DNA of 46,819 bases from positions 1 to 46,819 of the IMG/VR virus record IMGVR_UViG_3300049172_000218; one strand, given 5' to 3'. Below, piece after piece: positions 1-46,819 of this stretch. This DNA comes from a virus. Its lineage: Duplodnaviria > Caudoviricetes. How positions within the stretch are numbered: the stretch's first letter is position 1; each line of letters opens with the position of its first letter. Made by a program: the position numbers and the translations under genes. The notes below the pieces were generated by a model. That model searched no databases and was not told the DNA's origin. It saw only the letters and a list, made by a program, of their open reading frames with translations.

Positions 1-1005
1 ATGACAACCTCCAGAAGACGGCTGAGAAGTTCACCAGCCATACGGAGGATCGACGTGGCTGAATTGGAAGTACTAGAGCAAGCGTATTTGAACCACCATG
101 TGGTGATGTCCTCATCGCCTAAGACCATCGAACACTACCGGAACACCTTCCTCTGCTTTCACCTGTTTCTCGATGAATCCGGCCACCCGCATGACAGCCA
201 GGCTCTCACAGCCGACATGATCGCCGAGTTTGCGGTTTGGCTCAAGCGGACACCGACCAAGGGATTTCGAGGAAAGACCGAACGGAGCATTGTCACCATT
301 CACGGGCAGCTCAAAGACCTGCGGGCTTTCACCCGCTGGCTGTTCGAGAACGACCGGCTGGAAACATTGCCGAAGATCTACCTGCCGAAGTTGCCACAGA
401 CGCTATTTCCCATCCTGTCCGACGAGGAGTTAATAAAAATCTTCTCGACCCAGCAGATGTCTACCGAAACCGAAATCGGCAAGCGAAACCGAGCCATCAT
501 TTCCTTCATGCTCGATACCGGCGTCAGGCTGGCCGAAGTCTCCTCGTTAAAACTGGAAGACATTCACCTGTCGGATGGCGTGGCGAAGGTATGGGGCAAG
601 GGTTCGAGAGAGCGAATGGTCTTCTTCTCGGCCACCACCGCTGATGCCATCAAACTGTGGCTGTCAGTCAGAGGTCAAGAACCTGGCCAACTGTTCTGGC
701 TCAATCCAGCAGGGGTGCGGATGATGATTGACCGAATTCAAAAGGAGGCGGGGCTCGAAGTCTTCCACGCTCACCAGATCAGGCATACCGCTTTCACCAT
801 CATGCTGCGCAACGACATGGACTCGCATAAGGTCAAACGTATCGCGGGCCACTCGTCCATACTCGTAACTGAGCGGTACCTATCTCTTTCAACCGGGGAT
901 CTCAAGGAAGCTCACCGAATCGCCTCCCCGGTAGAGAAGGTGGTTCGAGATATCAACCCACCAAATCGCACCAGGCGACGGTGGAGCAATAAGAAAGCAT
1001 CTTGA
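1..1005 (+). CDS. int: Tyrosine recombinase/integrase
   Basis: Catalytic motifs: RNRAIISFMLDTGVRLAEV (R), WGKGSRER (K), HQIRHTAF (HxxR), IAGHSSILVTERY (H/Y); N-terminal SAM-like region SPKTIEHY. Confidence 0.95.
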   Translation: MTTSRRRLRSSPAIRRIDVAELEVLEQAYLNHHVVMSSSPKTIEHYRNTFLCFHLFLDESGHPHDSQALTADMIAEFAVWLKRTPTKGFRGKTERSIVTIHGQLKDLRAFTRWLFENDRLETLPKIYLPKLPQTLFPILSDEELIKIFSTQQMSTETEIGKRNRAIISFMLDTGVRLAEVSSLKLEDIHLSDGVAKVWGKGSRERMVFFSATTADAIKLWLSVRGQEPGQLFWLNPAGVRMMIDRIQKEAGLEVFHAHQIRHTAFTIMLRNDMDSHKVKRIAGHSSILVTERYLSLSTGDLKEAHRIASPVEKVVRDINPPNRTRRRWSNKKAS

Positions 1006-1012
1006 GAGAGCA

Positions 1013-1045
1013 AAAAGGGAGGGGGTTCATCCCCTCCCTTTTCTT
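1013..1045. terminator. Bidirectional intrinsic terminator between int and convergent HTH gene
   Basis: AAAAGGGAGGGGG-TTCA-TCCCCTCCCTTTT hairpin with A/T tracts on both sides. Confidence 0.85.
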
Positions 1046-1109
1046 ATGCACCGCTGGCGAACTGGTTCCGGTGTGATCCGTGCAGCCGCGGCCGAGTGGG
1101 CCGAAACGC

Positions 1110-1385
1110 TTAACCCAGCATCTTTCGAGGTCCCATCGTCTTGACGACACTGCCTGCGAGCTCATTCAGGCCATAGAGCATCGTCAAATCCTTCTCCAGA
1201 ATCCGCCGATCGAAGATCAGGCCAATCCAGATTCTCATCACTATCTCTGGTGACGGATTCGACTTGTCTCCATGGTAGAGGCGGAAGAGATAGGCTCGGT
1301 CGACCCCACCGTCTTCTGCCACCTGGTTGAGGGTCTTGCCAGTGATCATCAACATTCGGTCGAGTGTGGTTTTGAAATCATCCAT
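1110..1385 (-). CDS. XRE/Cro-like helix-turn-helix regulator
   Basis: GKTLNQVAEDGGVDRAYLFRLYHGDKSNPSPE matches the XRE HTH pattern. Confidence 0.8.
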   Translation of the reverse strand: MDDFKTTLDRMLMITGKTLNQVAEDGGVDRAYLFRLYHGDKSNPSPEIVMRIWIGLIFDRRILEKDLTMLYGLNELAGSVVKTMGPRKMLG

Positions 1386-1876
1386 ATAACCTTTCCGTCG
1401 AACCCGAACTACTTCGACTCCGCCGTCTGGTTACTCACGCCCGACCTTATGCGCGATTGGGGCCAGCAGTGCATAGTCCCTATGCTAGCGGAAGTAGGTT
1501 GACAAAAATAGGGGTGGGAATAAGAATTTTGACCATTGGGTCCTACAGAGTAATCGTCACGGCCGAAACCGGCTTTACCACGACATCGGGCAGATTCCTC
1601 GTCGCTGGCTACACCTGTGGTTTGGCTCGTCAACTGTCAACGACCACAGCCGCCTCTCGTTGCGGGATTGCGGAGTTGTCCTTCACCCCATTAAGGGCAA
1701 GGAGCAGCCCTGCACCTTTGTCCGTGGTGGGGGAAGCGTCCGAGAGTGATGGCTTCCCCGTAATCTCGTCATCGTCTGTGTGGTGCCGTAATGCAGACGG
1801 GTGATCAAGCCTTATGACGACGCTGAACGTTTTGGTTGATCGACACAGGGGGTAGCCAGCAAATCCATTGTACCCC

Positions 1877-1906
1877 GCCGTAAGCCCGGCTGTAACGACC
1901 GCCGTA
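1877..1906 (+). repeat. Three GCYGTA hexamers at exact 12-bp period (left copy)
   Basis: GCCGTA 1877, GCTGTA 1889, GCCGTA 1901. Confidence 0.75.
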
Positions 1907-2044
1907 CCGCTAATACAAGCGCTACCGCGGCATTTCTCAGGAGTGTAGGAGGTTTCAAAGCAAGGTTCCAAATCACTAAGTTGTAGGGAGTTCCAACCCA
2001 AGGCTGTAAGTGAATGGGTACGAATTTTGCCAGGAGCGTGAAAG

Positions 2045-3040
2045 ATGCCACAAACAATCAAGGAACCGGTGACAGATGAGTGGGGCGGATCATTTTATCG
2101 AGACCGGACCGGCGAGTTTCTGGACGACAAATCCTCACCGTTCCTCGGGGCTGAGCCCATACCTTGGAAAACCATTACTGCCTCTCTTGGGGTGTTCCTG
2201 GGAATTTTCATAATTGGAATTTCTCTCTATTCCTTCGGACAAACTGCTACCTCCGAGTCTGCCGAAAACCAAGATGGCTCGTATAAATTCGGAGTGGTTT
2301 TGGCGACCCTAGTTTTCATGTCGCTCGCAGGACTTCTGATTTGGGGTTCTATCAAACTCTACCTCATGGGTAACGCAGAGAAGCAAATTCGCTTACAAAG
2401 TGACATCCGCTTGAAAGAGCTAAGGGAAGTGGCCCGACTGGGTGTGGCCCAGAACATGACCTTCGCAGATCTCCAGCGCATGGCACATGCGGCCAACCTT
2501 TCGATGGCTCAATACAGTGCCATCGTTCTCGGACACGTGGTTGAAAATGCCACTCAATTCGAAAAATACAAACGGGATCGAAAGGACGACAGGAGGAGGG
2601 AAGAGTTTCAGCGAGAGCACGAACGTGACCAGTGGCGGAGAGAAGAGAATCAGGCCGATCGACAGCACAAGGAGCGGATGCATAAAGCCACCCTTGAAAG
2701 TGAAGAGGCCAAATACTATATCAAGCTGAAGGAGCAGAAGCAGGATTGGGACTACCAGCTCCAGCGGCTCGAACGGCAACAAACGCACGATGAGCGCATC
2801 AAGACTGTCACCGAAATTAGCAACATCCGAGCGGCCATGATTGGTTCGTTAATGGAGTTGCGAGCAAACCCTGCCCTCGCAGGGCAAATCAATCAGATTG
2901 TCACAGCCCTCGATACCGTGCAGCAGGCGCTTGATCGGCCAGAATTCAACACACCGGATGGCGAGAGGAAGCGAGAAGTCTTTGACCAGCTGTTGACGCA
3001 GTTCCTGACCGACGCCTTCACCGGTAAAGCCAAAGCCTGA
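2045..3040 (+). CDS. Two-TM membrane protein with charged coiled-coil C-terminus; first gene of mobilisation operon
   Basis: Hydrophobic segments LGVFLGIFIIGISLY and FGVVLATLVFMSLAGLLIWG; R/E/Q-rich tail; AGGAG RBS; stop 2 nt before ATPase start. Confidence 0.8.
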   Translation: MPQTIKEPVTDEWGGSFYRDRTGEFLDDKSSPFLGAEPIPWKTITASLGVFLGIFIIGISLYSFGQTATSESAENQDGSYKFGVVLATLVFMSLAGLLIWGSIKLYLMGNAEKQIRLQSDIRLKELREVARLGVAQNMTFADLQRMAHAANLSMAQYSAIVLGHVVENATQFEKYKRDRKDDRRREEFQREHERDQWRREENQADRQHKERMHKATLESEEAKYYIKLKEQKQDWDYQLQRLERQQTHDERIKTVTEISNIRAAMIGSLMELRANPALAGQINQIVTALDTVQQALDRPEFNTPDGERKREVFDQLLTQFLTDAFTGKAKA

Positions 3041-3042
3041 AA

Positions 3043-4842
3043 ATGGAAACGCAGCTCATGAGTCTCGGGCATAAGGCTTTTGATCCCGCACGCCCGACCA
3101 TTGGCCGCTATCCACTCCGGATGGACCTGAAATCGCTCAGGTCCATTCACATTCTTGGTCAGCCGGGTTATGGCAAATCTACTCTGCTAGGCCGCCTGGC
3201 AGAGACTTTTGCCGATTTGGGTCACGGTGTCTTAGTGATCGACATTCGCGGGGACTTGGCCACCAACCTCGTCTGTCGAACCAAGCACGCGGATAGACTC
3301 ATTCTGGTCGATCCAGTTGAAGCTTCCACCACCGGCCACTACTGGTCGCTCAACCCCATGGATTTTGATCGCAAGAACCCGCAGCTGTTTGATCGCTACA
3401 CCGACCGGCTGCCGGATCTCTTCGCCCGGATTGGTATTCACGATCCAACTCTCATGCAGACCATCGAGAAACTGCTAACCGAAGGCGTCAGGTTGGCTCT
3501 GGCTACTCCAGACACATCCCTACTCGATGTCTACCTGGCCCTGCACGATGACCGGCATCGAGAACGACTGCTTCGCTCTCGACACGTTCCGCCGCTCACC
3601 AGAGACTACTTTCAGGAAGTGTTCACCAAGTCTGATCATCCACTGCGGAAGAACAACGCTGGTGGCATGACGCCTCGTGATCGCCGGATTGCCATCGACT
3701 CGACCGATTCCAGGCTTCGCCAAGTGCTGGGCGGAAACCTGCTCAACCGGATGCTGATCCAACCCCATACAACCCTCAACATCGCCCAGTGGCTAGACGA
3801 GGGCAAGCTCGTTGTCGTCAATCTCGATCAATCGAGGATGGGGGAACGTACTGCCCGCAAGATGGGCAACCTAATTCTCGGCGCCCTCTCCAATGACATC
3901 ATTCAGCGGCCGACTGGAGAGGTATCCCTTCCCTGGCGAATCATCGTCGATGAAGCGGCCGAACTAGCCAATCGCCCCTTTGCCGAGATGATCACCCAAA
4001 TGCGAACCCACTCGGTCTATCCCATCCTGGCCCATCAGAATCTCTCGCAACTCAAAGACGAAACCCTCGCCGACGCCGTATCGCAAGCCTCCTGCAAAAT
4101 CCGGTTCCGGCTTTCCGAAGTTGACGCCAAGACCATTGCCGATCGGTACTCTCCCGAATTCGCCGCTCATCTGATGAGTCTCCCTCCCTACCGAGCGCGG
4201 GTGATGTGGGACGCCTCCGACAATCGCCTGGTAGACAGTCGCCTTGGGGTCGATGTTGATCTACAAGATTGGTGGGGAGTTAGCGATACGGCCCAGCTTA
4301 CAGCGGCTCTTGCGGCGCAACGCTCCCTGGCCCAACACGAGTCGCATCAACGCCAGTTACTCCATCTTGAGCGGTTTAAGACTGCGTCAAAACATGGTGT
4401 AATGGAGGGAGCTTATGACGATGACCCAACCGACGACAAAACCTACCAACCCCCACCCCGGCCGGATGAACCGGGATCTGAAGAACTCCCGGAAACGCCC
4501 GATGGAGGGGATCCATCGTGGCTGGGACGCGTTGGAAGCCCTGTACCGGTACCGGGCGATGCAACCCAAGCACATGGCCCAGCTGTTGTTTCTGAAACTG
4601 CCGGATCCGACCGACCCGAGCCAGAGTCTGCCGAAAGCCCTCCGCTCAGCCCAGCAAGCGGCCAACCGCAACTGCCTCTACTGGCTGAAGAACCTGGGCT
4701 ACATCAAAGCGATCTCAATCGCGATTCAAAAAGGGGACTCGGCGACGGCGATGGAGATGTGCGCCCTGACGCCGAAGGGATTCGAGGTGCTCCAGGAGCA
4801 CCGACTGAACCACGGCCTGGAGGCCCACTCCAACCTAGTTAA
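3043..4842 (+). CDS. VirD4/TraG/TrwB-like coupling ATPase (HerA/FtsK superfamily)
   Basis: Walker A GQPGYGKST, VLVIDIRGDL, Walker B WRIIVDEAAE, ILAHQNLSQL, FRLSEVDA; acidic Pro-rich tail. Confidence 0.88.
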   Translation: METQLMSLGHKAFDPARPTIGRYPLRMDLKSLRSIHILGQPGYGKSTLLGRLAETFADLGHGVLVIDIRGDLATNLVCRTKHADRLILVDPVEASTTGHYWSLNPMDFDRKNPQLFDRYTDRLPDLFARIGIHDPTLMQTIEKLLTEGVRLALATPDTSLLDVYLALHDDRHRERLLRSRHVPPLTRDYFQEVFTKSDHPLRKNNAGGMTPRDRRIAIDSTDSRLRQVLGGNLLNRMLIQPHTTLNIAQWLDEGKLVVVNLDQSRMGERTARKMGNLILGALSNDIIQRPTGEVSLPWRIIVDEAAELANRPFAEMITQMRTHSVYPILAHQNLSQLKDETLADAVSQASCKIRFRLSEVDAKTIADRYSPEFAAHLMSLPPYRARVMWDASDNRLVDSRLGVDVDLQDWWGVSDTAQLTAALAAQRSLAQHESHQRQLLHLERFKTASKHGVMEGAYDDDPTDDKTYQPPPRPDEPGSEELPETPDGGDPSWLGRVGSPVPVPGDATQAHGPAVVSETAGSDRPEPESAESPPLSPASGQPQLPLLAEEPGLHQSDLNRDSKRGLGDGDGDVRPDAEGIRGAPGAPTEPRPGGPLQPS

Positions 4843-5404
4843 TCCAGTCCCGGTCATCTGCGACCAGTCGTTTGATCACTGGTTGCTGGGAATGGAGTCA
4901 GCCGTTTCCGCTGAAGCGGCTATCCGCTCAGTCGGTGGGAAGGTGACGACCTATTGGGACGAATATGAGATTCGCCAACGGTCCAAGAGACGCCGAGACG
5001 GCATCGATTGGGGCGGGCTCGAACCAGACGGCCTAATCATCGCCGAAATCAATGGCATCAAACACGCCATGTTGCCGGAAATCGATCGAGGCTTCCAACC
5101 GGTCGCCTCAAACGCTCCCAACTCCATTCGCACCAAGGGACACAAATACAAGAACTTTTTCATCCACTACCGGCAGTACGACCCCCTGCTGATGGATCTT
5201 AAGCAGCCGACGGTTCACTTCATTACCAAGTCAAAGCAACGTCTGGAAACGATACGGGAAGAGATCGAGAGCCAGGGCGGCAGGCAATCCTACTGGTACT
5301 CCACCTTCGAATGGATCCAGCCACCGTATTCCTTTCTGGGCCAGGTCTGGGAAGTGTCAGGACGGGAGGGGTACCACTCGCCACTCTCCATCTTTAAGCC
5401 GTAG
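4415..5404 (+). CDS. Replication-relaxation (Replic_Relax-type) relaxase
   Basis: N-terminal wHTH (LEALYRYRAMQPKHMAQLLF...ALTPKG), DHWLLG, PD-(D/E)xK-like core EPDGLI...EIDRG...KGHKY; GGAGG RBS; adjacent to coupling ATPase. Confidence 0.8.
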   Translation: MTMTQPTTKPTNPHPGRMNRDLKNSRKRPMEGIHRGWDALEALYRYRAMQPKHMAQLLFLKLPDPTDPSQSLPKALRSAQQAANRNCLYWLKNLGYIKAISIAIQKGDSATAMEMCALTPKGFEVLQEHRLNHGLEAHSNLVNPVPVICDQSFDHWLLGMESAVSAEAAIRSVGGKVTTYWDEYEIRQRSKRRRDGIDWGGLEPDGLIIAEINGIKHAMLPEIDRGFQPVASNAPNSIRTKGHKYKNFFIHYRQYDPLLMDLKQPTVHFITKSKQRLETIREEIESQGGRQSYWYSTFEWIQPPYSFLGQVWEVSGREGYHSPLSIFKP

Positions 5405-5463
5405 CAGCCGATGTAGCCCCGGCGCAACAAATGGAGAAGATCGAGCCCAATGGACCGATTTCA

Positions 5464-5493
5464 GCCGTAGGGCCAGCCGTATCCCCTGCTGTA
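5464..5493 (+). repeat. Three GCYGTA hexamers at exact 12-bp period (right copy)
   Basis: GCCGTA 5464, GCCGTA 5476, GCTGTA 5488; also GCCGTA 5398 and GATGTA 5410. Confidence 0.75.
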
Positions 5494-5527
5494 GGCGCCC
5501 GAGTCCTACAACTCATCTCATCGTGAG

Positions 5528-6004
5528 CTTTCTTCTTGGCCTTCGGCCATCTGACAGCTTCACTCTAGCAGATCAGTAAAATGTCCAGCTCCACTATGAT
5601 GCTATAGACCTTTCGACCGATCTGCCTGCTACTCGTCACTATAGATTGATCCTCAAGATTTCCCGATCACAATCGGCAGGGCCAGCCCTTGCCGATACCT
5701 CCTCTCCAGACACTCTCCTCCTCTCCGGATTGCTCCCTCTCTCCTTCCACTCCACTCATTTTTCATTTCATTGTCATGCCGCTACGCTCCAGTCGGTCAG
5801 TCGCACTCCTGCGCTCCGTTGACCGCCTTGCGCTCCAGCATCACCAAGCCCTGTCCGCCGATTGAACGGTCAATGGTGAGTCTCTACCTATAGCAACCAG
5901 CACCACGCCGATTTGCCGAAATGCCCATAGCATCTTCGTTCCCGCTTGAATTTGACAGACCTGCTACAGCAAATCTATCAGATGGCCGAAGGCCAAGAAG
6001 AAAG
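5528..6004. repeat. Long imperfect inverted repeat with perfect 27-bp outer arms; candidate single-strand origin or ssDNA promoter
   Basis: 5528-5554 CTTTCTTCTTGGCCTTCGGCCATCTGA is the exact reverse complement of 5978-6004; inner helices are in the same register. Confidence 0.85.
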
Positions 6005-6072
6005 GCAGGTCCTATGTAACAACACAGCCTCACTTTATTCATCAAGCGCACAAGCACACTAGTAGTCATGTT

Positions 6073-6537
6073 ATGGAGAACCACATGTTTATTATTCAAC
6101 TTACAGAAGAACAGATAGCGGCTATCCAGGTCAGAGACCGAAAATCGCTCAAGCGGCAGCCCAGACCCCAGATAAGGGAATCGAAAGACGCCTTTGAGCT
6201 GTTGAGGCATATGGGGCAGCTCAGCAAAGAGCATTGCATGGTGCTGACATTAGACTCTCGGAGCCAAGTTATAGGCAAGCATGAAATCAGCGTCGGTACC
6301 GTTGACGCTTCACTGCTTCATCCTCGCGAAGTGTTCAGGGTAGCAATCAAAGATGCGGCCAGATCACTAATTCTGGCTCACAATCACCCCAGCGGACAAT
6401 TAGATCCATCAGAAGATGATCTGCTCATAACCAAGCGGATAAAAACGGCTGGCCAGATAGTAGGCATTCCAGTTGTTGACCACCTGATCATCGGCCAGGG
6501 CGACTTCTACAGCTGGCGTGATAACGAGCGCATGTAG
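6073..6537 (+). CDS. radC: RadC-like JAB/MPN domain protein
   Basis: SVGTVDASLLHPREVF, AHNHPSG, S-x-DD, VVDHLIIG. Confidence 0.93.
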   Translation: MENHMFIIQLTEEQIAAIQVRDRKSLKRQPRPQIRESKDAFELLRHMGQLSKEHCMVLTLDSRSQVIGKHEISVGTVDASLLHPREVFRVAIKDAARSLILAHNHPSGQLDPSEDDLLITKRIKTAGQIVGIPVVDHLIIGQGDFYSWRDNERM

Positions 6538-6585
6538 GCTAGTGGGGAGAGAGACACCCCTATGACTTTACCAAGGAGACCTACT

Positions 6586-6837
6586 ATGAGATCAACACAA
6601 CGGATCGTACTCGCCCATCAAGAGGCTATGAGGCGCAAAGAATCAACCAAGTTCAGCGATGAATTCATCCGCATACAGGAGCGAAACGCAGAACGTAATG
6701 CCCTCCATTGGCTGCATCGTGCGGACATCGATGTCGACAGAGCAAAAGTCCTCGCTCTATTTGAACCTATCCTTCGCCGTTATTGGACACGGTGCGGATA
6801 CTCCCAAAGCTGGATCAATCGTCAATTTGCCCCTTGA
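6586..6837 (+). CDS. Hypothetical protein (start 6586 or 6562)
   Basis: AGGAG RBS before ATG 6586; follows radC. Confidence 0.55.
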   Translation: MRSTQRIVLAHQEAMRRKESTKFSDEFIRIQERNAERNALHWLHRADIDVDRAKVLALFEPILRRYWTRCGYSQSWINRQFAP

Positions 6838-6863
6838 CATTCTCAGCACTCACTAGATATTAT
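6834..6863 (+). promoter_or_regulatory. Sigma70-type promoter of the early small-gene operon
   Basis: TTGACA (6834-6839)-18 nt-TATTAT (6858-6863), followed by GTAGATGTTCAATCAC. Confidence 0.75.
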
Positions 6864-7048
6864 GTAGATGTTCAATCACCCAACAGCCTCGATACTTCCC
6901 CACCTATTTTGACTTTGAACACCATCCACTTGGACCGGTTCCACCTCCGGCCCAAGTGCGGTGGTTCTTGGCGTATGAGAGCACAACTATAGAGAGCAAA
7001 AGGCCTATCGACCGGCCTGTAATCGGTCGAATATGGAGAACCACAGTA

Positions 7049-8316: not shown

Positions 8317-8949
8317 ATGACGAATTGGAACAGAGACGAACTAGAACAAAAACTGGCTGAAACCAGATCGATGACAGAAACAGCCAAGCATTACAACGTC
8401 ACCAAAGAGCGAATCCGCCAGGTTGCTCATCGTGATATTGGCCGAGAGCGCCTTATTGAGCTTGGCGTCACTATCAAACACGCCTATACCGACTGTCGGG
8501 TCTGTCATCGGTCACTCGACAAATTCAAAGGATCGAAAGGTCGTTGTGCTCGCTGCTACGAGTTCTACCGGGCCCACGGCGTTGAGCGAACCGATGAGCT
8601 TGTGCGCCAGCACATCCTCGAATCTCGAACCGGCCTTCCCCACTCAGTTCCGTGGACTCATTGCAGTCGGGGCCATGAGATGAGTGGAGACAACCTCTAC
8701 GTCAGTCCTAAAGGCGATCGACAGTGTGTTGCCTGTCAACGAATACGGCGGGCGCATTATATGAAGGATCCTCAGCATGTTGAGCGTCAGCGGGAGGCCG
8801 TGCGCAGATATCAATCGAGAAATCGCAACCGGATTCGAGAAGTGCAACGCCACCGCTACGCCACTGATCCCGAGTTTAAAGCGCGAATGAAGGCGCATGA
8901 TCGAAAGCGACGAGAGAAAGATCGCCAGGCTAATGGAGCGGGAGCCTGA
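8317..8949 (+). CDS. DNA-binding protein: sigma70-region-4-like HTH, two Zn motifs and basic tail
   Basis: ETAKHYNVTKERIRQV; CRVC...CARC; THCSRGHEMSGDNLY...RQCVAC; start refined to ATG 8317. Confidence 0.7.
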   Translation: MTNWNRDELEQKLAETRSMTETAKHYNVTKERIRQVAHRDIGRERLIELGVTIKHAYTDCRVCHRSLDKFKGSKGRCARCYEFYRAHGVERTDELVRQHILESRTGLPHSVPWTHCSRGHEMSGDNLYVSPKGDRQCVACQRIRRAHYMKDPQHVERQREAVRRYQSRNRNRIREVQRHRYATDPEFKARMKAHDRKRREKDRQANGAGA

Positions 8950-8974
8950 ATCAATCCCCTCCACCCCTACTACC

Positions 8975-9559
8975 ATGACTGACGCCTATCCATTGGCGTG
9001 GCCTGCAGGTTGGCCACGTACTGAAAATCCAAAACGCTCCGCTTTCCAAACCCCTGGCGGGAAAGCCATCAATAATCTCCTAATGCAACTCAATCGAATG
9101 GGCGCAACCAATATCGTCATCTCTTCGAATGTGATGCTACGCCGTGACGGTTTGCCCTATGCCAACCAACGTCGTCCTGAAGATTCCGGGGTCGCAGTGT
9201 ATTTCACCCTAAAAGGACTACAGCAGTGCATCCCGTGCGATCGGTGGAACTCAGTCGACGACAACATCCACGCTATTGGCTTGACGGTTGAAGCACTTCG
9301 AGGGTTGGAACGGTGGGGCGCCAAAGAGATGGTAGACGCGGCCTTTCAAGGCTTCAGAGCGCTTCCAGCACCATCTACGGAGTCACTCAGTAGCGGATGG
9401 TGGACTGTTCTTGGCATAAGCCCAACCGCTTCAAGGTCGGAGATTGAATCTGCCTATCGACTCTTGGTGAAGAAGCATCATCCCGATATGGGCGGTGACC
9501 CGGAACTTTTCAAGCGTTTGAATGCTGCCTATCAATCAGGGCTTGACGCCACAGCTTAA
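8975..9559 (+). CDS. Phage protein with C-terminal DnaJ (J) domain
   Basis: WWTVLGI...AYRLLVKKHHPDMGGDPELFKRLNAAY (HPD motif); N-terminus AYPLAWPAGWPRT typical of this phage family. Confidence 0.85.
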   Translation: MTDAYPLAWPAGWPRTENPKRSAFQTPGGKAINNLLMQLNRMGATNIVISSNVMLRRDGLPYANQRRPEDSGVAVYFTLKGLQQCIPCDRWNSVDDNIHAIGLTVEALRGLERWGAKEMVDAAFQGFRALPAPSTESLSSGWWTVLGISPTASRSEIESAYRLLVKKHHPDMGGDPELFKRLNAAYQSGLDATA

Positions 9560-9625
9560 CCCCTTGCCGGCCTGAAGGAGCGCCCAACCTTGGACGCTGC
9601 AAAGGCTCAGGCAAGGAAAGACACA

Positions 9626-10453
9626 ATGGGAAAGGTAGAGCGGGCAGAGTTACTCACGTCGCAGATCGATGAAGCCTTGGAGGATCTGGAATACCAACTC
9701 TCACAAGGCCACACGCAAGAGTTTCTGGACATCCTCGACTACTACGCCAAGCACTTCCACGCCTACTCCATCACCAACCTGATGCTCATCCGCGCCCAGA
9801 AGCCGACAGCCACCAGATGTGCCGGGTACAAGCAATGGGAGAAGCTCGGATGCCAGGTCAGGCAGGGTGAGAAGGCGATTTACGTTCGCGCCCCGTGGCT
9901 TCGTAAGGAAGTGGACCAGGAGACCGGTGAAAAGACCGAGAAGCTCATAGGCTACCTCGCGGTTCCAGTGTTCGACGCCTCACAGGTCGATGGAACCGAC
10001 AAGCTCCCCTCCCCCAGACATCCGCTAGAGGGCGACTTCGTACCGCTGTACATGATGGCCCAGCTGGCCACCATCGGGGCGGGAATTGCCTTTGAGGAAT
10101 GTCAGCTGCCCTTCGGGGTGCATGGACTCTCATCCGGTAGGCGGATAGCCATATCCAGCACCCTGTCCACGGCCGAGAAGTTCGTCACCCTGTTGCACGA
10201 GGCTTGTCACGAGGTTCTCCATAAGGGAGAAGACCGGGTGAAGCTCTCACAACGGGAGTTAGAGGCCGAGTCTGCCAGCTACTGCCTCGCCAGGTACTTC
10301 GGGACTGACAATCCCTTCAGCAGGGACTACATCCTGAACTACCGAGGAACGGTCGAAGGGCTGCAAGCCAGCTTCTCCCGCATCCACAGAGCGGTGAAGG
10401 AAATCGTCTCCTGGTTCGAGCTAGAGGAAGAACCGGCCATCGCCGCCGACTAA
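9626..10453 (+). CDS. ardC: ArdC-like ssDNA-binding/antirestriction protein with zincin (HExxH) domain
   Basis: FHAYSITNLMLIRAQKP...AGYKQWEKLGCQVRQGEKAI, VFDASQV, HEACHE, ELEAESASY. Confidence 0.88.
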   Translation: MGKVERAELLTSQIDEALEDLEYQLSQGHTQEFLDILDYYAKHFHAYSITNLMLIRAQKPTATRCAGYKQWEKLGCQVRQGEKAIYVRAPWLRKEVDQETGEKTEKLIGYLAVPVFDASQVDGTDKLPSPRHPLEGDFVPLYMMAQLATIGAGIAFEECQLPFGVHGLSSGRRIAISSTLSTAEKFVTLLHEACHEVLHKGEDRVKLSQRELEAESASYCLARYFGTDNPFSRDYILNYRGTVEGLQASFSRIHRAVKEIVSWFELEEEPAIAAD

Positions 10454-11903: not shown

Positions 11904-12019
11904 TCCGCTTCTTCCTCCACCCCATCTGCCTATTCCTCGGCCACAACCCCCTTCCAATGGTGGACTGTGAGGGTGAAGTCTTTGGCAAGGCGTGTGGGCG
12001 ATGTGGGGTGAGAGTATGA
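11900..12019 (+). CDS. 39-aa Cys/His peptide (C-x3-GH...CxRCG phage motif)
   Basis: GAGGAGG RBS, ATGA coupling; MIRFFLHPICLFLGHNPLPMVDCEGEVFGKACGRCGVRV. Confidence 0.55.
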   Translation: MIRFFLHPICLFLGHNPLPMVDCEGEVFGKACGRCGVRV

Positions 12020-12169: not shown

Positions 12170-12281
12170 GAGCCAGTTAGCTCAAGGTAGAGTTCTGAAC
12201 GGTAGACGACAGAGTGTAAATCCGTGAATAGCGGTCTCTCGCTGTATTCAGAGGACGCAGGTTCAAATCCTGCCCTGGCTC
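12170..12281 (+). tRNA. tRNA-like gene with about 40 nt of extra sequence in the anticodon loop; identity undetermined
   Basis: Acceptor (G)AGCCAG/CTGGCT(C); TA-GCTC-AAGGTA-GAGT D arm; CTGAA/TTCAG anticodon stem enclosing 47 nt; AGGAC variable loop; GCAGG-TTCAAAT-CCTGC T arm; no encoded CCA. Confidence 0.7.
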
Positions 12282-12781: not shown

Positions 12782-13162
12782 GTGAACGACACCGAGCGAG
12801 TTCTTGAACTACTCAGGCGTGCTGTGGCTATCCTGGAGGATGAGATTGAGGAGCGGCCGGCCAAGCCTCTGACGATCCAACCCTCAGATGATGAGGTATT
12901 GCTAGAAGGCGTGGTTGGAAAATGCACCCTTCGGCAAGTTGGAGAAGGTGCTATACCCGTCTACAACGGTTCGATGAAGGTCAGAACACCGGAAGGCCAG
13001 GAACGATGGGTCGAGCTCACCGCCTGGCGTAAGGTGGCGCTGTGGGCAGAGAAGAACCTCGCAGAAGGGGAAGTGGTACAAGCGGTTGGACGGTGGGAAA
13101 CCAACCATTACAACGGAGAAGACAGACCATACTTCAGTGTCCGGCTATTCAGTTCGGCCTGA
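12782..13162 (+). CDS. ssb: Single-stranded DNA-binding (OB-fold) protein lacking an acidic tail
   Basis: VLLEGVVGK...ERWVELTAWRKVALWAEKNLAEGEVVQAVGRWETNHYNGEDR; AAGGAG RBS. Confidence 0.78.
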   Translation: MNDTERVLELLRRAVAILEDEIEERPAKPLTIQPSDDEVLLEGVVGKCTLRQVGEGAIPVYNGSMKVRTPEGQERWVELTAWRKVALWAEKNLAEGEVVQAVGRWETNHYNGEDRPYFSVRLFSSA

Positions 13163-14466: not shown

Positions 14467-15294
14467 TTGCAACCTATGGCCTCATCCATCGAAACGTCGA
14501 TTCAACCAATTGCCCAGATAGGCCATGGTGCCCTCTACAACGCCGACTGTCTTGACGTACTACCCACTATCGAGAGCGAGTCGGTGGACTTGGTCTTTGC
14601 AGATCCTCCTTTCAACCTTGATAAAAATTACGGGGCTCACTTTCGGGACAAGATCTCCGAAGCAGACTATCTGGACTGGTGCTACCAGTGGCTAGATGAA
14701 TGTATCCGCATCTTGAGCCCGGGAGGCGCACTATTCGTCTACAACCTTCCCAAGTGGAATGTGCTACTGGGCGCGCACATACAGAAACAGTTGGAGTTCC
14801 GGCACTGGATCGCAGTGGATATCAAGCTCTCCCTGCCGATCCCTGGCCGACTCTATCCCTCCCACTATTCGCTCCTCTACTACACCAAGGGCAAGCCACG
14901 AGCATTTACCCGGCCGCGGGTCCCCATTCCCGTCTGCCGTCATTGTGGTGGAGAGATCAAGGATTATGGCGGGCATCGCAACAAGCTCAACCCAGAGGGT
15001 CTTAATCTCACCGACGTTTGGACTGACATCCCTCCAGTCCGCCATCGATCCACCAAGAATCGCGGAGCCAATGAGCTTTCAATTAAGTTGCTCAACCGGG
15101 TCGTAGAGATTGCCTCAAACCCGGGCGACACGATCCTCGACCCATTCGGCGGCGGTGGTTCGACGTTCGAAGCCGCAGAGCGTGGACATCGATCCTGGAT
15201 TGGTATTGAATTGGGCGACTGTCAACCAATCATTGATCGTCTGACACGAGTGGCCTCTGAACCAGTGCCCACCCGTCTGTTCCCTTTGGAATAA
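14467..15294 (+). CDS. Beta-class amino (N4-C/N6-A) DNA methyltransferase, M.BamHI-like
   Basis: VDLVFADPPFN precedes ILDPFGGGGST (beta order); LYPSHYSLLYYTKG. Confidence 0.93.
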   Translation: MQPMASSIETSIQPIAQIGHGALYNADCLDVLPTIESESVDLVFADPPFNLDKNYGAHFRDKISEADYLDWCYQWLDECIRILSPGGALFVYNLPKWNVLLGAHIQKQLEFRHWIAVDIKLSLPIPGRLYPSHYSLLYYTKGKPRAFTRPRVPIPVCRHCGGEIKDYGGHRNKLNPEGLNLTDVWTDIPPVRHRSTKNRGANELSIKLLNRVVEIASNPGDTILDPFGGGGSTFEAAERGHRSWIGIELGDCQPIIDRLTRVASEPVPTRLFPLE

Positions 15295-15838
15295 AAGGGA
15301 CAGACAGATCGACAGAATCATGTTCCACTTCAATCACATGAAAGAGGTGATTGGGTAAAGGGAGATAGCTGTACAATTCAAAGAACCTCTCCACCTCTTG
15401 AAAGTTGCCAATCCGATCCGTGAGATACCGATACAACGCCCTGGACGGCAGCACCAATACGCCAGCCACGATGGTGCCGTGGATTAAGCCGAGCGACAGT
15501 CGATTTAGGGAACGATAGCTGGATGTGACGTTTCCAGTCTCCCACTCGACTCCGAATGTGCCTATGGCTGTCTCCAATGAAGCGTCCACCCTCCCCAGTT
15601 TGCCCGGGAATTCCACCTCCATTTTCCAGCCGTATCGATTGAGCGTTTCAACGAAGGCGTGCTTGATAGGCACCACTCCATTGCCCGTTTTGACTGGGTT
15701 TATACGAAAGTCGGAGGCGTCGGGGGGCCATACTATCGCCCCGATAGCTTCATAAATTTGATCTTGAGCTCGCTGCCATTCTGAAGATTCCGATATCGAT
15801 GAGGCATCCTGGATCTTCTCAGTACGCAGTCGCTTCAT
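15230..15838 (-). CDS. BamHI-like type II restriction endonuclease
   Basis: NGVVPIK, GRVDA, VEWETGNVTSSYRSLNRL, YLTDRIGNFQE resemble R.BamHI motifs; convergent and overlapping with the MTase. Confidence 0.88.
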   Translation of the reverse strand: MKRLRTEKIQDASSISESSEWQRAQDQIYEAIGAIVWPPDASDFRINPVKTGNGVVPIKHAFVETLNRYGWKMEVEFPGKLGRVDASLETAIGTFGVEWETGNVTSSYRSLNRLSLGLIHGTIVAGVLVLPSRALYRYLTDRIGNFQEVERFFELYSYLPLPNHLFHVIEVEHDSVDLSVPFIPKGTDGWALVQRPLVSDDQ

Positions 15839-16035
15839 TGGGCCATTCCAGCCTTCTATTCAGAGTCGGCCATTCCGGCCGACTATTCGAAGGATTCAGC
15901 TCGCTCGCCCGCTCTCAAAGTCAATTATCTACCACCGTACCAGGATGTGGATCGCCGCAGACGAGCCTGTATACCGCTTCGAGGAACTCATCAGTCAGAT
16001 TCGATCGACTATGTATGCAAAGTACACCCACCTCG

Positions 16036-17751: not shown

Positions 17752-17961
17752 GCCTTTATTCCCCAATGGTGGTTCTATATTGCGGAGAGACGGATTGCAG
17801 CGACTCAACCGCGTTGCGTAATTTGCTTGGACCCTTTCCGGGCAATATAGCAAATCACGGTCTAACGGCCAACCGTCGTGCTTGCGTCAAGATTTGGAAA
17901 GTTCTGGGTTGACGTTTGAGTTTAATATTTGATACTTTGTATCAAACACCTACGCACCCCT

Positions 17962-22451: not shown

Positions 22452-23183
22452 ATGAGTGATCCTGCTGAGAGCCTACTAAATCGACGGAATCTAATCGCAT
22501 GGACCGGCGGCGCAATCTTTGGGTTTCTAGGTGGTCAACTGTCCTACGTTGGCGAGAAGTTGATAGATGAGAAATTTGAAGATAAGCATCGAATCGACGT
22601 AGCCATAAATCCTGGACCCAGTCCCTATGAATTTGCAAGTCAAATGAGCTGGGCCGTATTGGTCAGGTTGGATGAGGATTCCGGATCAGCCGACACTCCT
22701 TCGACTCCAATTGCCGAGTCTCCAGTAGGTGTGGCGACCCCGGTTCCAGGAGAGAATGAAACCCCGTGGCAAGGCTCCTCGTGGAGCGAGATCAGCTCAA
22801 TTATGATCCAAATAACAAATTCGGGATCATTCACTGAGGAAAATATCGAGGCAGTTGTAGATTTTGATGTGGATTTCAGTTCTTACGACCGTTTCCAGAG
22901 TTCAGATAGCAGCGAGAGGGACTTCGAGGCGAATCCCTTTAGCTTCTCTGTGAGCGCATCGAACGAGTCATTGTCGGACAGTGTCGTGATTGTTCCTGGA
23001 CTGTCGTTTCCCAACTCGGTTCCGCAGGAGTGGCGGATTACAATTCCAAAGCTTGTGGCGGGAAGCTATGTGACTTTCTTCTACTCGTTCATGGGACTAG
23101 TTCTGTCTGCATCAATCAGTGGAGATAGCGATAGTCAGGAGATTGAGGCTTTCTGGCGAGGGTCTTCTGAACCCGCCTTCTAG
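22452..23183 (+). CDS. Moron: exported/membrane-anchored acidic Ser-rich protein with twin-arginine-like N-terminus
   Basis: LLNRRNLIAWTGGAIFGFLGG; TPIAESPVGVATPVP linker; own GAGG RBS; interrupts head operon. Confidence 0.65.
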   Translation: MSDPAESLLNRRNLIAWTGGAIFGFLGGQLSYVGEKLIDEKFEDKHRIDVAINPGPSPYEFASQMSWAVLVRLDEDSGSADTPSTPIAESPVGVATPVPGENETPWQGSSWSEISSIMIQITNSGSFTEENIEAVVDFDVDFSSYDRFQSSDSSERDFEANPFSFSVSASNESLSDSVVIVPGLSFPNSVPQEWRITIPKLVAGSYVTFFYSFMGLVLSASISGDSDSQEIEAFWRGSSEPAF

Positions 23184-29453: not shown

Positions 29454-29546
29454 GTTGCCAGAGAGTGTACCTACAGTCCTTACATAAAGGTGCGGCTCCA
29501 GCTATACTTTGATGATCGGACTCACCAAGAGCAGGACGGGGTGGCA

Positions 29547-41523: not shown

Positions 41524-41525
41524 AC

Positions 41526-41561: not shown

Positions 41562-41594
41562 ATCCCAGATCTTTTGAAGGTAGGGGATCACATG

Positions 41595-42357: not shown

Positions 42358-42360
42358 GGC

Positions 42361-42993
42361 TTAGAAGGGGATATCGCTTGGACTCACATCCTTGGTGTGC
42401 TTGGCTGGATCGACCGGCTCGTCATCTACCTGATCTGCTGCTTCTGGGAAAGATGCAGTGACGGCGTCTTTGGTTTCTGGGGTGACTGCGGGGGCTGTGG
42501 CAGGCTGAGATGAGGAGGCAACGGCCAGGTTTCCAGCGGCTTGGAGGAAGTAGAGTTCAGACAGAGCAAACACTTTCTGTGGCTTGAGGAACTCTTTGGC
42601 TTCTGCTAGACCCTTTTGCTTGTCTTCGGCAGCATCATAGGTCATACGAGCGACGGCGATCATGATGTCTGTGGCGTGGCCGAGCGAGTTCTGGCGAATG
42701 ATTGAGGCTGTTTCTTCGGGACTGCGTTGGTAGCCACCACGCCCGCCTCCACCCTGTCGGTCTTCCTTCAGTTCGATACCAAACTTCTCACTCTGCGTGA
42801 TCGTTCCATTGATCTCGTCGCCTACAACTGGTGCTGGCTTTTTTGCCGATCGAGACATCTTGGCGAGGGTTTGGGTACCGGCCTCATCGGTGACGGCCAC
42901 CTGGTACTCGACCATTGCGACTTCTTCTCCGTCGCGTCCGTTGAATGTGTAGTCGCGAGCTTTGCTTGCGAGGGTTACTTTATACTTTGCCAT
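42361..42993 (-). CDS. SSB-like/ssDNA-annealing protein with acidic DIPF tail
   Basis: OB-like N-terminus, Gly-rich linker, SIIRQNSL helix, C-terminal SDIPF; AAGGAG RBS. Confidence 0.65.
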   Translation of the reverse strand: MAKYKVTLASKARDYTFNGRDGEEVAMVEYQVAVTDEAGTQTLAKMSRSAKKPAPVVGDEINGTITQSEKFGIELKEDRQGGGGRGGYQRSPEETASIIRQNSLGHATDIMIAVARMTYDAAEDKQKGLAEAKEFLKPQKVFALSELYFLQAAGNLAVASSSQPATAPAVTPETKDAVTASFPEAADQVDDEPVDPAKHTKDVSPSDIPF

Positions 42994-43038
42994 AATGATT
43001 AAACTCCTTAGAAATATAGTAATTAATGCTGGAAAAAT

Positions 43039-43215: not shown

Positions 43216-43258
43216 AGCTGACACCTCCTTTAGGGGTTATTAGTGATTGAACATATAC

Positions 43259-43287
43259 ATAATATACAGCATATATTTAATTGTCAA
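43259..43287 (-). promoter_or_regulatory. Near-consensus leftward sigma70 promoter
   Basis: Minus strand TTGACA-17 nt-TATTAT followed by GTATATGTTCAATCACT. Confidence 0.85.
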
Positions 43288-43375
43288 TAGACTAGTTTAG
43301 GAATTGGGGTATTGCCATATATACTGATTCTATGCTTTGATTAATCCATAACCTACTTGCCGTCAGGTGTATAAT

Positions 43376-43827: not shown

Positions 43828-44271
43828 TGGCTTGAGACCAGGCGGGACTTGCCACACGTACGGCGACCGCTTGATCTCAGGTTTCTACCTGACACAACGC
43901 TTCGGCTCGGGCAGTCTTGGTGATCTGCCACATATCAAACCGCCATCGTTTGCGGTCTTCTTCAAAGTCCCTGCTCTGCTGAGCCCAGCAACAGGGGACT
44001 TCCAGAAGCCCGTAAGCGACCAACCGTTTACGTTCGGAATCCAGGAGAAGGAGGCGCCACTGACCGAAAGGCGCCAGGGTTGGCAGGGATGCATCAGCCG
44101 CCTGAGAGGATACGTAAAAGCCGCCGCTTTATAGAGCGTCCCAAGTTTCCTGCCTATCCGCAGCCCCTGGATGGAAGGAGATAAGGGCGGTCAATGTCAA
44201 AAACGGCCGCTGACTAAAAAACGGGAAAACTCGAGAATTGGACAGAATAGCCGTTCGTGATATTATGTGAA

Positions 44272-44451: not shown

Positions 44452-44756
44452 GCGTTTGTGCCACATTGCAGCATCGTGATATTATGTAAATGGTTCCGGA
44501 CGAACTACGTGTTTCCTTCATCCATCCCACTACTGGGCAGCTCAGGCTCCTGCCTGGGCTGGTGTCCATTTCACCAAGAAGTGGTTGCCAGCTTGAGTAG
44601 AAGTTGCACTTCGGCCTCCCAACTTCGGTTGGGGATTTACTTTTCCCTCTCAGTTCTTCGGAATTGGGGGGTTGGAGCGCAACAGCTCACCTATTCGTAG
44701 ATAGTGGAAATCATTTCTACGTTTGGAGACTTCAGCCGTTGATAACCGGCGCCTCT

Positions 44757-45314
44757 ATGAGACGAATCCTCATCATCCCCGCCCTGGCCATCCTCGGACT
44801 GTCAGCGGCTCCATCTTTTCCAACTCATTCATCAGAAACCTTTCGATCCTTTCCTCCAAAGCAAGTCATGGCCTCACCGAAGGTCGAAGCTCCACAAGCC
44901 ACACAAACGGCTATAGAGCCTCTCTACGTTGAGCCAACACCCGAACCTCCTCCTATCCCTACTCCATACCCCACAAGCGCTCCTAGGCCCCAAATCGGCT
45001 CAATCGCTGCCATGCTGTGGCACAAAACCGCTGCCATGCTGTGGCACAAAACCGCTGCCAGGTTTGGATCGGCCCAAGTGCCGTTCATGCAGGATCTCGT
45101 TGGTCGAGAATCTGAGCTCAATCCCTACGCCATCAATACATCATCCGGTGCCTGTGGTATTCCCCAGGCTTACCCCTGCTCGAAGCTGCTGGCTGTCATC
45201 GGTTCACTGGATAACGTCGAAGGTCAGCTCGACTGGATGGTCGATTACATCGCCAACCGGTATGGCACTCCCGCCAAGACGATCGATCACCACAACGCCA
45301 AAGGCTGGTACTGA
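44757..45314 (+). CDS. Secreted lytic transglycosylase (SLT/lysozyme-like fold)
   Basis: Signal peptide MRRILIIPALAILGLSAA, Pro-rich linker, GRESELNPYAINTSSGACGIPQA...YIANRYGTP...GWY. Confidence 0.85.
   Translation: MRRILIIPALAILGLSAAPSFPTHSSETFRSFPPKQVMASPKVEAPQATQTAIEPLYVEPTPEPPPIPTPYPTSAPRPQIGSIAAMLWHKTAAMLWHKTAARFGSAQVPFMQDLVGRESELNPYAINTSSGACGIPQAYPCSKLLAVIGSLDNVEGQLDWMVDYIANRYGTPAKTIDHHNAKGWY
45005..45060 (+). repeat. 24-bp in-frame tandem duplication (2.3 copies)
   Basis: CGCTGCCATGCTGTGGCACAAAAC x2 plus CGCTGCCA, giving AAMLWHKT x2. Confidence 0.95.
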
Positions 45315-45323
45315 TTTGGTATT

Positions 45324-45686
45324 ATGGAAACATCACCAAGGAGGCTTGTGCGACAAGAAAGCGAACTGGAAGCCGCGTTCAGATTAGCTATCAGAGCCTG
45401 GGGAGATGGACTGCCGGCACCAATACAGGAATACGAATTCCACCTTGAACGAAAATGGCGTGTCGACTTCGCCTGGCCAGACCAAAAGGTGGCCGTCGAG
45501 ATTGAAGGCGGCGTCTACAGTGGCGGTCGCCACAACTCCGTCAGAGGCTTCTTGGGAGACATCGAGAAATACAACGCGCTGGCCGAAGACGGCTGGCGCA
45601 TCCTGAGATTCGCTAACCCACACGTCGAAGAACAACCATTTGACATGATTGAGCAGATTCGCCGCACCCTCTTCCCTTCCCCATGA
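45324..45686 (+). CDS. PD-(D/E)xK endonuclease (DUF559/Vsr-like)
   Basis: WRVDFAWPDQKVAVEIEGG...RH...DIEKYN...GWRILRF; alternative start GTG 45348 after AGGAGG. Confidence 0.85.
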   Translation: METSPRRLVRQESELEAAFRLAIRAWGDGLPAPIQEYEFHLERKWRVDFAWPDQKVAVEIEGGVYSGGRHNSVRGFLGDIEKYNALAEDGWRILRFANPHVEEQPFDMIEQIRRTLFPSP

Positions 45687-45940
45687 CTCTTCCCAACATC
45701 CCAACCTATTACTTGCTGGATACCTGGTCTGAGATTCCGCCCTCCATGGGCTGGAGATTCGCCGTGGCCAGATTGCGCCTCCGAGGTTGCGAGACCAACG
45801 AGCGAGAAGTGAAACAGGCCGTCTACGAGCGGCTGGTCAACATCGGTCTGCTCGCCCCAAACACCAAACCGACTCCCAAGGATTGGAAGCGTGCCAAGCG
45901 CAGGTGGAAGTCGGGCTACTCCGGAAGCCTGATGCAATAA
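45683..45940 (+). CDS. Hypothetical basic protein
   Basis: ATGA coupling with the nuclease gene. Confidence 0.55.
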   Translation: MTLPNIPTYYLLDTWSEIPPSMGWRFAVARLRLRGCETNEREVKQAVYERLVNIGLLAPNTKPTPKDWKRAKRRWKSGYSGSLMQ

Positions 45941-45970
45941 AAAACCCCCCGGCATTTCTGCCAGGGGGTG
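45938..45970 (-). terminator. Terminator between convergent genes
   Basis: AAAAA-CCCCCCGGCA-TTTC-TGCCAGGGGG; U tract on minus strand. Confidence 0.65.
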
Positions 45971-45977
45971 TGAATTA

Positions 45978-46160
45978 TTAGAACCGGGCGTTTTTCGTTC
46001 GCTTGGCGTGTTCCGGTCGGAGGTCTACCTCCTTCCGGTATTGGTTGTAGACCCGCTCGCTGGGGAATCCAGCCTTTTCCGAAAGTTCCTTGGTGCTCAG
46101 TGGCTTCTTGCCGTAGAGCTCCTTCGGGGTCTTGGTCTTGTCGTCCTTTTTGCCAAACAT
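45978..46160 (-). CDS. Small Lys-rich protein, possibly HTH
   Basis: GAGGAG RBS before ATG 46160; LSTKELSEKAGFPSERVY. Confidence 0.55.
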   Translation of the reverse strand: MFGKKDDKTKTPKELYGKKPLSTKELSEKAGFPSERVYNQYRKEVDLRPEHAKRTKNARF

Positions 46161-46351
46161 CGTTTGCTCCTCGACTTTCAGCAAAATCGCTGTATGGCTA
46201 CTCTAGGGATATGTCGTGCTGCTCGCGGTGTCCACTAGACAACTGATTTATGTAAATGCGACAATGTGTTTGACGTTCGAGGCAACCCTATTTGAAACTG
46301 ACAAACGCCCCCTTGCCTCGAACTTGGGGGCTTTGTCATATCCGGAGGTTG

Positions 46352-46819
46352 ATGAAGCCATGCACAAAATGTGGGGAATCCAAGAACGAGGCTGAATTCA
46401 GCCACAATCAGACCAAGCGGGACGGGCTACACCAGTCATGCAAGTCGTGTCATTCCCGGTACCTGAAAGGCCACTACGCGAAGTACAAGGCCTATTACGT
46501 ATCCAAGGCCAAAGTCTCCAAACTAAAGGCGTACAGGGCAAACAGGAGCCTTGTAGACGACTACCTCTCCACTCATCCCTGCGCCGATTGCGGCGAACCT
46601 GATCCTATCGTCCTAGAGTTTGACCATGTTCGCGGCGTCAAAGAGAAATCCGTGTCTGTCCTAGCCTTCTCACTCGGATCCTCTGCCAAGCGAATCATGG
46701 AGGAGATAGCGAAGTGTGAGGTCCGCTGCGCCAACTGCCATCGTCGGAAGACCGCCATTCAGCTTGACTGGGGAGCGCCTTACAGACGGTATAATGCTTC
46801 GGATGAGACGAGTGCGTAG
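46352..46819 (+). CDS. HNH endonuclease with N-terminal Zn ribbon
   Basis: CTKCGESK...F...DGLHQSCKSC; CADCG...LEFDHV...KCEVRCANCHRRKT; GGAGG upstream. Confidence 0.88.
   Translation: MKPCTKCGESKNEAEFSHNQTKRDGLHQSCKSCHSRYLKGHYAKYKAYYVSKAKVSKLKAYRANRSLVDDYLSTHPCADCGEPDPIVLEFDHVRGVKEKSVSVLAFSLGSSAKRIMEEIAKCEVRCANCHRRKTAIQLDWGAPYRRYNASDETSA

Follow-up and report, generated by a model that had tools for sequence, protein, structure and literature searches.

The virus record IMGVR_UViG_3300049172_000218 holds 46,819 nucleotides (nt) of tailed-phage DNA, which we analyzed at full length (the window; G000). Its first letters are the ATG of an integrase gene and its last are the stop codon of an HNH gene. 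Two groups of genes dominate it: packaging, head, siphovirus-type tail and lysis genes at 18269 to 41523 (+), and, at the left end, an integrase arm that encodes a regulator, a membrane protein, a VirD4-like ATPase and a Replic_Relax nuclease. The window therefore carries the genes that define a tailed prophage (terminase, portal, HK97-fold capsid, tail and lysis genes) together with those that define an integrative mobilizable element (IME; integrase, relaxase and coupling protein, without mating-pair genes). The original prediction, made from the letters alone, had placed an intact-looking siphovirus module at 18.3 to 41.5 kb in one stretch with an integrase, a VirD4-like ATPase and a PF13814 gene, and profile searches confirm both the module and the combination. 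Among the 62 window open reading frames (ORFs) scanned, we recognized no VirB4 or mating-pair family, as had also been predicted, no second integrase, and no replication initiator, primase, helicase or polymerase; with Rep and Par unrecognized in these ORFs, the window does not classify as a phage-plasmid.

The virion genes encode the large terminase subunit (TerL), a Mu-like portal, an F protein, a protease, the major head protein, an adaptor, a neck protein, the tape measure, Dit and an amidase, and homologues of the capsid protein carry PF03864. TerL and the major capsid protein (MCP) are 66% and 60% identical, respectively, to those of the provirus G001, the closest virion relative, which was found via the capsid protein.

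The integrase arm begins with a tyrosine integrase (1 to 1005, +; PF00589, E = 4e-28), the sole integrase of the element, which is 36 to 38% identical to the integrases of G001 and of a second provirus, G004. A helix-turn-helix (HTH) regulator on the opposite strand (1110 to 1385, −; HTH_3, E = 6e-4), absent from the original prediction, is kept in the same place in G001, G004 and the metagenomic locus L032, at 32 to 47% identity. The next gene (2045 to 3040, +) specifies a membrane protein with a long charged tail and two transmembrane (TM) segments predicted by a crude hydropathy scan; it has no family match in profile searches and no usable match in the Atlas (best, 0.75). Behind it lies the gene for a soluble VirD4/TrwB-like ATPase (3043 to 4842, +), matched by DUF87 (E = 9e-6) and, weakly, by TrwB_AAD_bind (E = 1.8e-4). 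The family profile of this ATPase matches DotL, TrwB and YjgR in the PDB, its TrwB-like domain has the Walker A and Walker B motifs of a coupling protein, and its structural neighbors in the Atlas carry TrwB_AAD_bind (TM-score of about 0.83) and span several phyla; a Chloroflexota host is a guess from the style of the proteins. We file it as coupling-protein-like because its own chain, which contains no hydrophobic or transmembrane segment, is without an N-terminal membrane anchor; anchor-less VirD4-like members are common according to passages of PMC3357382. The membrane gene immediately precedes the ATPase gene in the window, G001 and G004, and its product may anchor the soluble ATPase. Hydropathy and profile matches thus bear out the proposed run of TM protein, VirD4-like ATPase and Replic_Relax genes.

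The last gene of the run (4415 to 5404, +) encodes a Replic_Relax (PF13814, MOBC-like) nuclease, assigned from its family alignment, conserved residues and structure model. A profile built on its four close relatives retrieved 153 proteins, and 21 of the 24 rows of the nuclease alignment match PF13814, one of them 50% identical to the window protein. Across these rows P204, D205, E222, D224 and Y245 are invariant and K241 is nearly so, giving the pattern P204-D205, E222-x-D224, K241 and Y245 in the window protein. In the structure model (pLDDT, 89.9), residues 28 to 136 form a winged helix-turn-helix (wHTH) that matches MarR/PadR folds (Z up to 10.6), and the model has a long match of middling score to the nickase N.BspD6I (Z, 8.7; rmsd, 3.4; 144 residues aligned). 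A PD-(D/E)XK-type domain is predicted in addition to the wHTH. This layout fits the description of MOBC relaxases, in passages of PMC12857230, as a wHTH joined to a restriction-like active site. GenBank phages contained no match to the window nuclease at an E value of 0.1, the nuclease profile retrieved only a MarR chain (E = 0.31) from PDB sequences, and scans of viral contigs with the single nuclease or TerL sequence found nothing.

Downstream of the nuclease gene, an imperfect long inverted repeat (5528 to 5582/5950 to 6004; 55-nt arms, 85% complementary) folds as single-stranded DNA (ssDNA) with a z score of −5.0, so the large ssDNA-type hairpin of the original prediction is real. The repeat is a candidate oriT or single-strand signal. 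Rfam had no match at 5528 to 6004, and no long hairpin was found after the relaxase gene of G001.

The same ATPase-nuclease pair occurs in three other proviruses, which have two kinds of head genes. Gene order in G001 runs from integrase, HTH, TM, TM, ATPase and relaxase genes through ArdC to the terminase. G004, found via the nuclease, is 100% complete by CheckV, has an HK97-type head, and follows the order integrase, HTH, membrane protein, ATPase and nuclease, then ArdC, then terminase. The third provirus, G005, came from an ArdC scan that returned three records, among them G001 and G004, which were alignment members already; it has the ATPase-nuclease pair and head genes, with Rep and a partial ParA upstream, and the parts compared contained no match to an integrase. 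The terminal gene of G005 encodes a CD-NTase (CBASS-type cyclase; L047, 502 to 1557). A scan of GTDB genomes with the capsid protein returned only two loci, at 28% identity.

In G004 the limits of the element can be read directly. On its parent contig (L029), the first 38 nt of a tRNA-Arg(TCG) gene lie 176 nt before the integrase ORF, and a whole tRNA-Arg gene with the same 38 nt starts 65 nt after the terminal HNH gene. This repeat at both ends indicates that one att pair encloses both modules in G004. The tRNA-Arg is intact at the right end (L011, 2326 to 2401) and represented by its 5′ part at the left (L029, 6320 to 6357), so that the phage would supply the 5′ half of the tRNA together with its promoter. 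An integrase of a second element lies just past the end of G004. The terminal HNH protein of the window is 53% identical to the product of the G004 gene immediately before the tRNA-Arg, and nowhere in the window is the att core of G004 matched (at best, 22 of 38 nt agree).

The geometry of the window is consistent with that of G004. The sequencing run with the best content of the window (X1) is a soil metagenome whose contigs tile the window without differences at 53.2x, 54.5x, 54.6x, 49.9x and 52.8x; X1 is a possible source of the window, and its tiling is therefore not independent evidence. The end contigs run 205 nt beyond the window on the left and 107 nt on the right and then stop. Contigs overlap by 30 nt at the other X1 breaks, which predicts a repeat 175 nt to the left of the window and 77 nt to its right. 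These breaks would match the att geometry of G004 (175 versus 176 nt), placing the att site of the window in a tRNA 5′ half just outside it and the right att site about 77 nt beyond its end. A second run, X2, contains low-depth, scattered relatives of both blocks (share, 0.07), between which linkage is impossible, and an exact search of metagenome contigs with the left end of the window gave 0 matches. The capsid protein and the ATPase are both recorded on one 165,248-nt contig, indicating that the window is a provirus trimmed to its genes. A free circular genome was ruled out: there is no terminal repeat, the overhanging contigs miss the other end, and the parent contig is 165 kb long.

From the even X1 tiling, the single integrase, the lack of an internal repeat and the likeness to G001, G004 and G005, we conclude that the window is very probably one element, a temperate prophage. 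The original prediction had named an internal att-like direct repeat as a refuting observation; no exact direct repeat of at least 16 nt was found between the blocks. The accompanying caveat that this block is a separate tandem insertion has become unlikely in view of the G004 att pair, the gene order and the X1 tiling.

Beyond these proviruses, an ATPase scan of metagenome contigs returned 12 loci, one of which is the parent of G004; the nuclease gene lies directly behind the ATPase gene in 11 of the 12, and the twelfth ends inside the ATPase. An integrase scan gave seven loci, of which two (alignment members) have the cassette and five distant ones lack it in the DNA compared. Three loci of 15 to 21 kb (L023, L025 and L032) contain the cassette and a second Replic_Relax gene, and Rep and ParA are also present in L025 and L032. 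No virion families were found in these three loci, which may extend beyond the stretch compared, in a Pfam-only scan that covered 78 of the 125 ORFs of L023, L025, L032 and L026, plus 22 others. The second Replic_Relax gene lies a few kilobases downstream (L023, 14388 to 15527; L025, 12017 to 12973; L032, 13709 to 14722) and forms a clade of its own (support, 100/98). L023 additionally encodes an Otr(A)/Tet-like ribosome-protection GTPase (4695 to 6671), below curated cutoffs, beside integrase fragments.

The cassettes of the window, G001 and G004 are divergent, with pairwise identities of 26 to 33% for the ATPases and 23 to 28% for the nucleases, and the window ATPase clusters with that of L023 (support, 100/99). 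Approximately unbiased (AU) tests reject the grouping of the three phage-borne copies in a single clade (P = 1e-7 and P = 5e-13); they used quick trees with long branches, the first trees had been seen beforehand, P0199 was left out of the ATPase test, and G005 was excluded. Because the phage-borne copies are nonmonophyletic and the cassette occurs in loci in which no virion gene was found, the simplest reading is that it has likely been swapped repeatedly between prophages and nonvirion integrative elements.

The pairing of a relaxase with a VirD4-like ATPase in phages is not new, having been published for Bacillus phages that include the lytic phage SPO1. Passages of Pathria et al. (2012; PMC3357382) describe a phage “DNA translocation operon” of a CloDF13 MobC-related nuclease and a VirD4-like ATPase in lytic and lysogenic phages, near integration genes in the latter; they report no growth defect upon deletion of the operon from 0305phi8-36, leave its role open, and, having found no other relaxase family in phages, suspect a phage-specific fit. 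As in the window, passages of that paper place the nuclease beside a helix-less VirD4-like ATPase with separate membrane proteins (0305phi8-36 orf200/201 and SPO1 gp27.3/27.4). The window ATPase matches seven Bacillus phage records at about 24% identity, its identity to the CP-51 ATPase being 24%; the gene after the CP-51 ATPase matches PF13814 and aligns to the window nuclease family at 96% probability, and its product is matched by 67 Bacillus phage records, SPO1 included. SPO1 and CP-51 differ in having a partition gene alongside and ATPases of about 900 amino acids, whereas the window cassette sits in the integrase arm of a provirus from another host group and is shared with nonvirion integrative elements. 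In SPO1, genes 27.9 to 27.3 (L048, 330 to 5840) encode a partition protein, four small proteins, the ATPase and a Replic_Relax-like protein in one run, and the CP-51 pair, too, is part of a run that includes the gene for an actin-like partition protein.

Other known systems share parts of this arrangement. CONJscan scores PF13814 as MobC, and integrase, MobC and VirD4 together make up IME class 8 in passages of PMC5357655; the streptococcal members resemble the window in combining an integrase, a VirD4-type coupling protein and a PF13814 relaxase without mating-pair genes but, as presented there, have a serine integrase, rather than the tyrosine integrase of the window, and no virion genes. 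The N-terminal wHTH, the restriction-like domain and the adjacent coupling ATPase gene recur in CloDF13 MobC and pAD1 TraX (passages of PMC12857230 and PMC3424549); those systems are plasmid borne with transfer demonstrated, whereas the window has a nuclease of predicted activity and a candidate oriT. The cassette of Bacillus siphoviruses described in passages of PMC9658697 and PMC11526630 (FtsK/SpoIIIE, Replic_Relax and TrbC/VirB2) likewise puts a membrane protein, an ATPase and Replic_Relax in a tailed phage, but its motor is of the FtsK type and that of the window is of the VirD4/TrwB type. P1-like plasmids with a relaxase or oriT, as portrayed in part of bioRxiv 10.1101/2025.08.29.673033, also join mobilization genes to a phage-derived backbone but lack essential phage genes, whereas the virion module of the window looks complete. 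The passages seen of PMC11389934 and PMC12282955 contain no such dual element, and those of PMC2147016 have nothing on the DNA translocation operon. Our literature search turned up no phage in which a cassette of this kind had been put to the test, which does not establish that such work is absent from print.

The working role that we favor for the cassette, with a little less than even confidence, is helper-dependent conjugative mobilization. We prefer it because the gene set is the signature of an IME and persists even alongside a separate Rep: G005, L025 and L032 have their own Rep/ParA yet keep the cassette. The excised phage circle would be nicked and handed to the mating channel of another element, and the cassette would be a second, nonessential route beside virions. 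The wHTH domain may bind, and the PD-(D/E)XK-type domain may cut, close to the inverted repeat that follows the nuclease gene, and the membrane protein would anchor the soluble ATPase, the mating channel coming in trans.

Several observations weigh against a single prophage with a mobilization cassette. The att sites of the window are placed by contig geometry, with att read directly in G004 only, and no single X1 contig spans the junction at 11981 to 12007 (27-nt overlap; 54.6x versus 49.9x). The nuclease is lacking in five more distant virion relatives: two with capsids of 30 to 34% identity that are at least 96% complete (G002 and G003), two with TerL at 29% identity that are about 55% complete (G006 and G007), and one fragment (G008). 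The original prediction had suggested scoring co-occurrence among TerL/MCP relatives; G001 has the nuclease, and these five do not. The window nuclease alone misses PF13814 and has no Pfam match of its own. In the 650 nt that follow the nuclease gene, a long inverted repeat clearly beats 15 shuffles in only 5 of 11 regions (marginal in 1 and failing in 5) and was not found after the relaxase gene in G005. Finally, SPO1 and CP-51 have a like pair beside a partition gene and, being lytic, form no prophage that could be mobilized.

The retention of the pair with a partition protein in SPO1 (gp27.4/27.3) and CP-51 speaks for the main rival, a channel-free DNA pump, in which the membrane protein and the ATPase would make up a small translocase that needs no type IV secretion system and carries nuclease-processed phage DNA through a septum, into spores or to a cell in contact. 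The 67 Bacillus phage records that match the CP-51 nuclease, the failure to find mating-pair families in any locus scanned, the membrane gene before the ATPase gene in the window, G001 and G004, and the phage-specific fit suspected for this sole phage relaxase family in passages of PMC3357382 point the same way. We hold the pump to be less likely than mobilization, since the ATPase profile best matches the coupling proteins DotL and TrwB, with no FtsK/TraB chain among the matches listed. Moreover, no coupling protein is known to export DNA without a channel. It is less likely still that the nuclease starts phage replication by nicking, in rolling-circle fashion, with the ATPase assisting inside the cell. 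The lack of any recognized replication gene among the 62 ORFs would fit such a role, as would the tie of PF13814 to plasmid replication in passages of PMC3424549 and the RefSeq label “replication initiation by nicking” of SPO1 gp27.3, a label that records an annotation rather than an experiment; however, a Phage_rep_O-like initiator and ParA accompany the cassette in G005, L025 and L032, the 0305phi8-36 operon is dispensable for growth in the account of PMC3357382, and no covalent DNA intermediate was seen with TraX in passages of PMC12857230. The relatives' own Rep/ParA and that dispensable operon disfavor the relaxase-led rolling-circle replication entertained in the original prediction. The membrane partner, too, would stay unexplained.

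A further alternative, which we consider improbable, is that the 1- to 6.5-kb block is inert cargo or a separate integrative element in tandem with the prophage. The nonmonophyly of the phage-borne copies and the three 15- to 21-kb loci with the cassette, in which the ORFs scanned showed no virion families, would be expected of such a block, and provirus callers may extend a record to the nearest integrase. Against it, the single att pair of G004 encloses both modules and the window geometry agrees, the prophage would be left without an integrase, the order is kept in three proviruses, and the nucleases, at 23 to 28% identity, have retained their catalytic-type residues. That the ATPase and nuclease form an antiphage defense pair of the HerA-nuclease kind is most improbable: the DUF87/HerA match and a PADLOC match of the ATPase to mad8 (E = 8e-12) are offset by the lack of any PADLOC match for the nuclease or membrane protein, by the fixed place beside the integrase and outside the variable defense island, and by the wHTH fusion, which fits site-specific binding. 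Returning to transfer, we tentatively raise a broader proposal, held well short of probable: tailed phages may take up the MOBC-VirD4-membrane cassette from integrative elements time and again, using it as a minimal exporter that needs no virion and moves the whole phage genome into an adjacent cell or compartment, whether through a borrowed mating channel or without one.

The early region had been likened to the leading region of conjugative elements. Its radC and ardC genes are confirmed, as a RadC-like JAB protein, here accessory (6073 to 6537, +; PF04002, E = 6e-42), and an ArdC-like antirestriction protein (9590 to 10453, +; PF08401 [ArdC-N], E = 8e-14) that is also present in G001, G004 and G005. 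The proposed ssb gene corresponds to a weakly SSB-like protein (12782 to 13162, +) in which an OB-fold-like match is present but lies under the Pfam cutoff (PF00436, E = 0.005). As a unit, the leading region is not supported, since radC was not found in the G001 or G004 loci, the two closest-organized relatives, ssb is weak, and the hairpin was not found in G001 or G005.

An early promoter at 6833 to 6879 (+) has 22 of 23 nt in common with a leftward right-arm promoter at 43243 to 43290 (−). The shared 23-nt motif occupies 6857 to 6879 and 43243 to 43265, and its core occurs in 4 copies versus 0.21 expected. The motif links the early region to the right arm, as predicted, and lends no support to an ssDNA promoter; it looks like a common phage promoter of the sigma70 type, followed downstream at both positions by a shared operator-like tail. 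By eye, G004 has a motif of its own at the same two positions. Two further copies lie in a largely noncoding stretch at 43.8 to 44.7 kb, which also contains a weak match to the freshwater-1 RNA (43960 to 44017, +; 30 bits, below the gathering threshold of 72).

The remaining features are accessory to these modules. A DnaJ-domain phage protein (phrog_9210; 8897 to 9559, +) is 57% identical to its G005 copy. A tRNA-like element missed by the original prediction (12171 to 12281, +; Rfam tRNA, 42.5 bits, above gathering) has its anticodon loop replaced by a 46-nt stretch, and ARAGORN finds no tRNA there. A defense island at 14467 to 17853, recognized by PADLOC and profile matches, comprises a type II methyltransferase and a BamHI-like endonuclease, whose genes are convergent and overlapping, followed by AIPR/AbiU; its G+C content is 49.5%, versus 53 to 54% in the rest of the window, and the same slot in G001 and G004 is occupied by different methyltransferase genes. 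Inserted genes interrupt the virion module at 22452 to 23183 and 29490 to 30803, the latter encoding a coiled-coil protein with a weak SLATT-like two-helix end. In the right arm, the product of 42361 to 42993 (−) has no family match and an acidic tail ending with Pro-Phe, which we take to resemble the SSB C terminus. A transglycosylase-like gene, a DUF559 nuclease gene and the terminal HNH gene (44604 to 46819, +; profile matches) close the window; the first of these contains a 24-nt tandem repeat at 45002 to 45058 that is seen in X1 contigs as well.

A specialist familiar with PMC3357382 would not be surprised by the pairing itself. To it the present analysis adds a non-Bacillus group, a member whose att pair could be read, and evidence that the cassette has been exchanged repeatedly with nonvirion elements, and it bears on the question, left by the passages of that 2012 paper, of why this one relaxase family associates with phages. 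SPO1 in B. subtilis offers a tractable system for the function of the cassette. Phages and conjugative hitchers are usually classed apart; a cassette that does function in transfer would bring both routes together in one element. Should it act as a virion-free exporter, these soil proviruses would truly travel by two routes and escape the limits that receptors set on host range.

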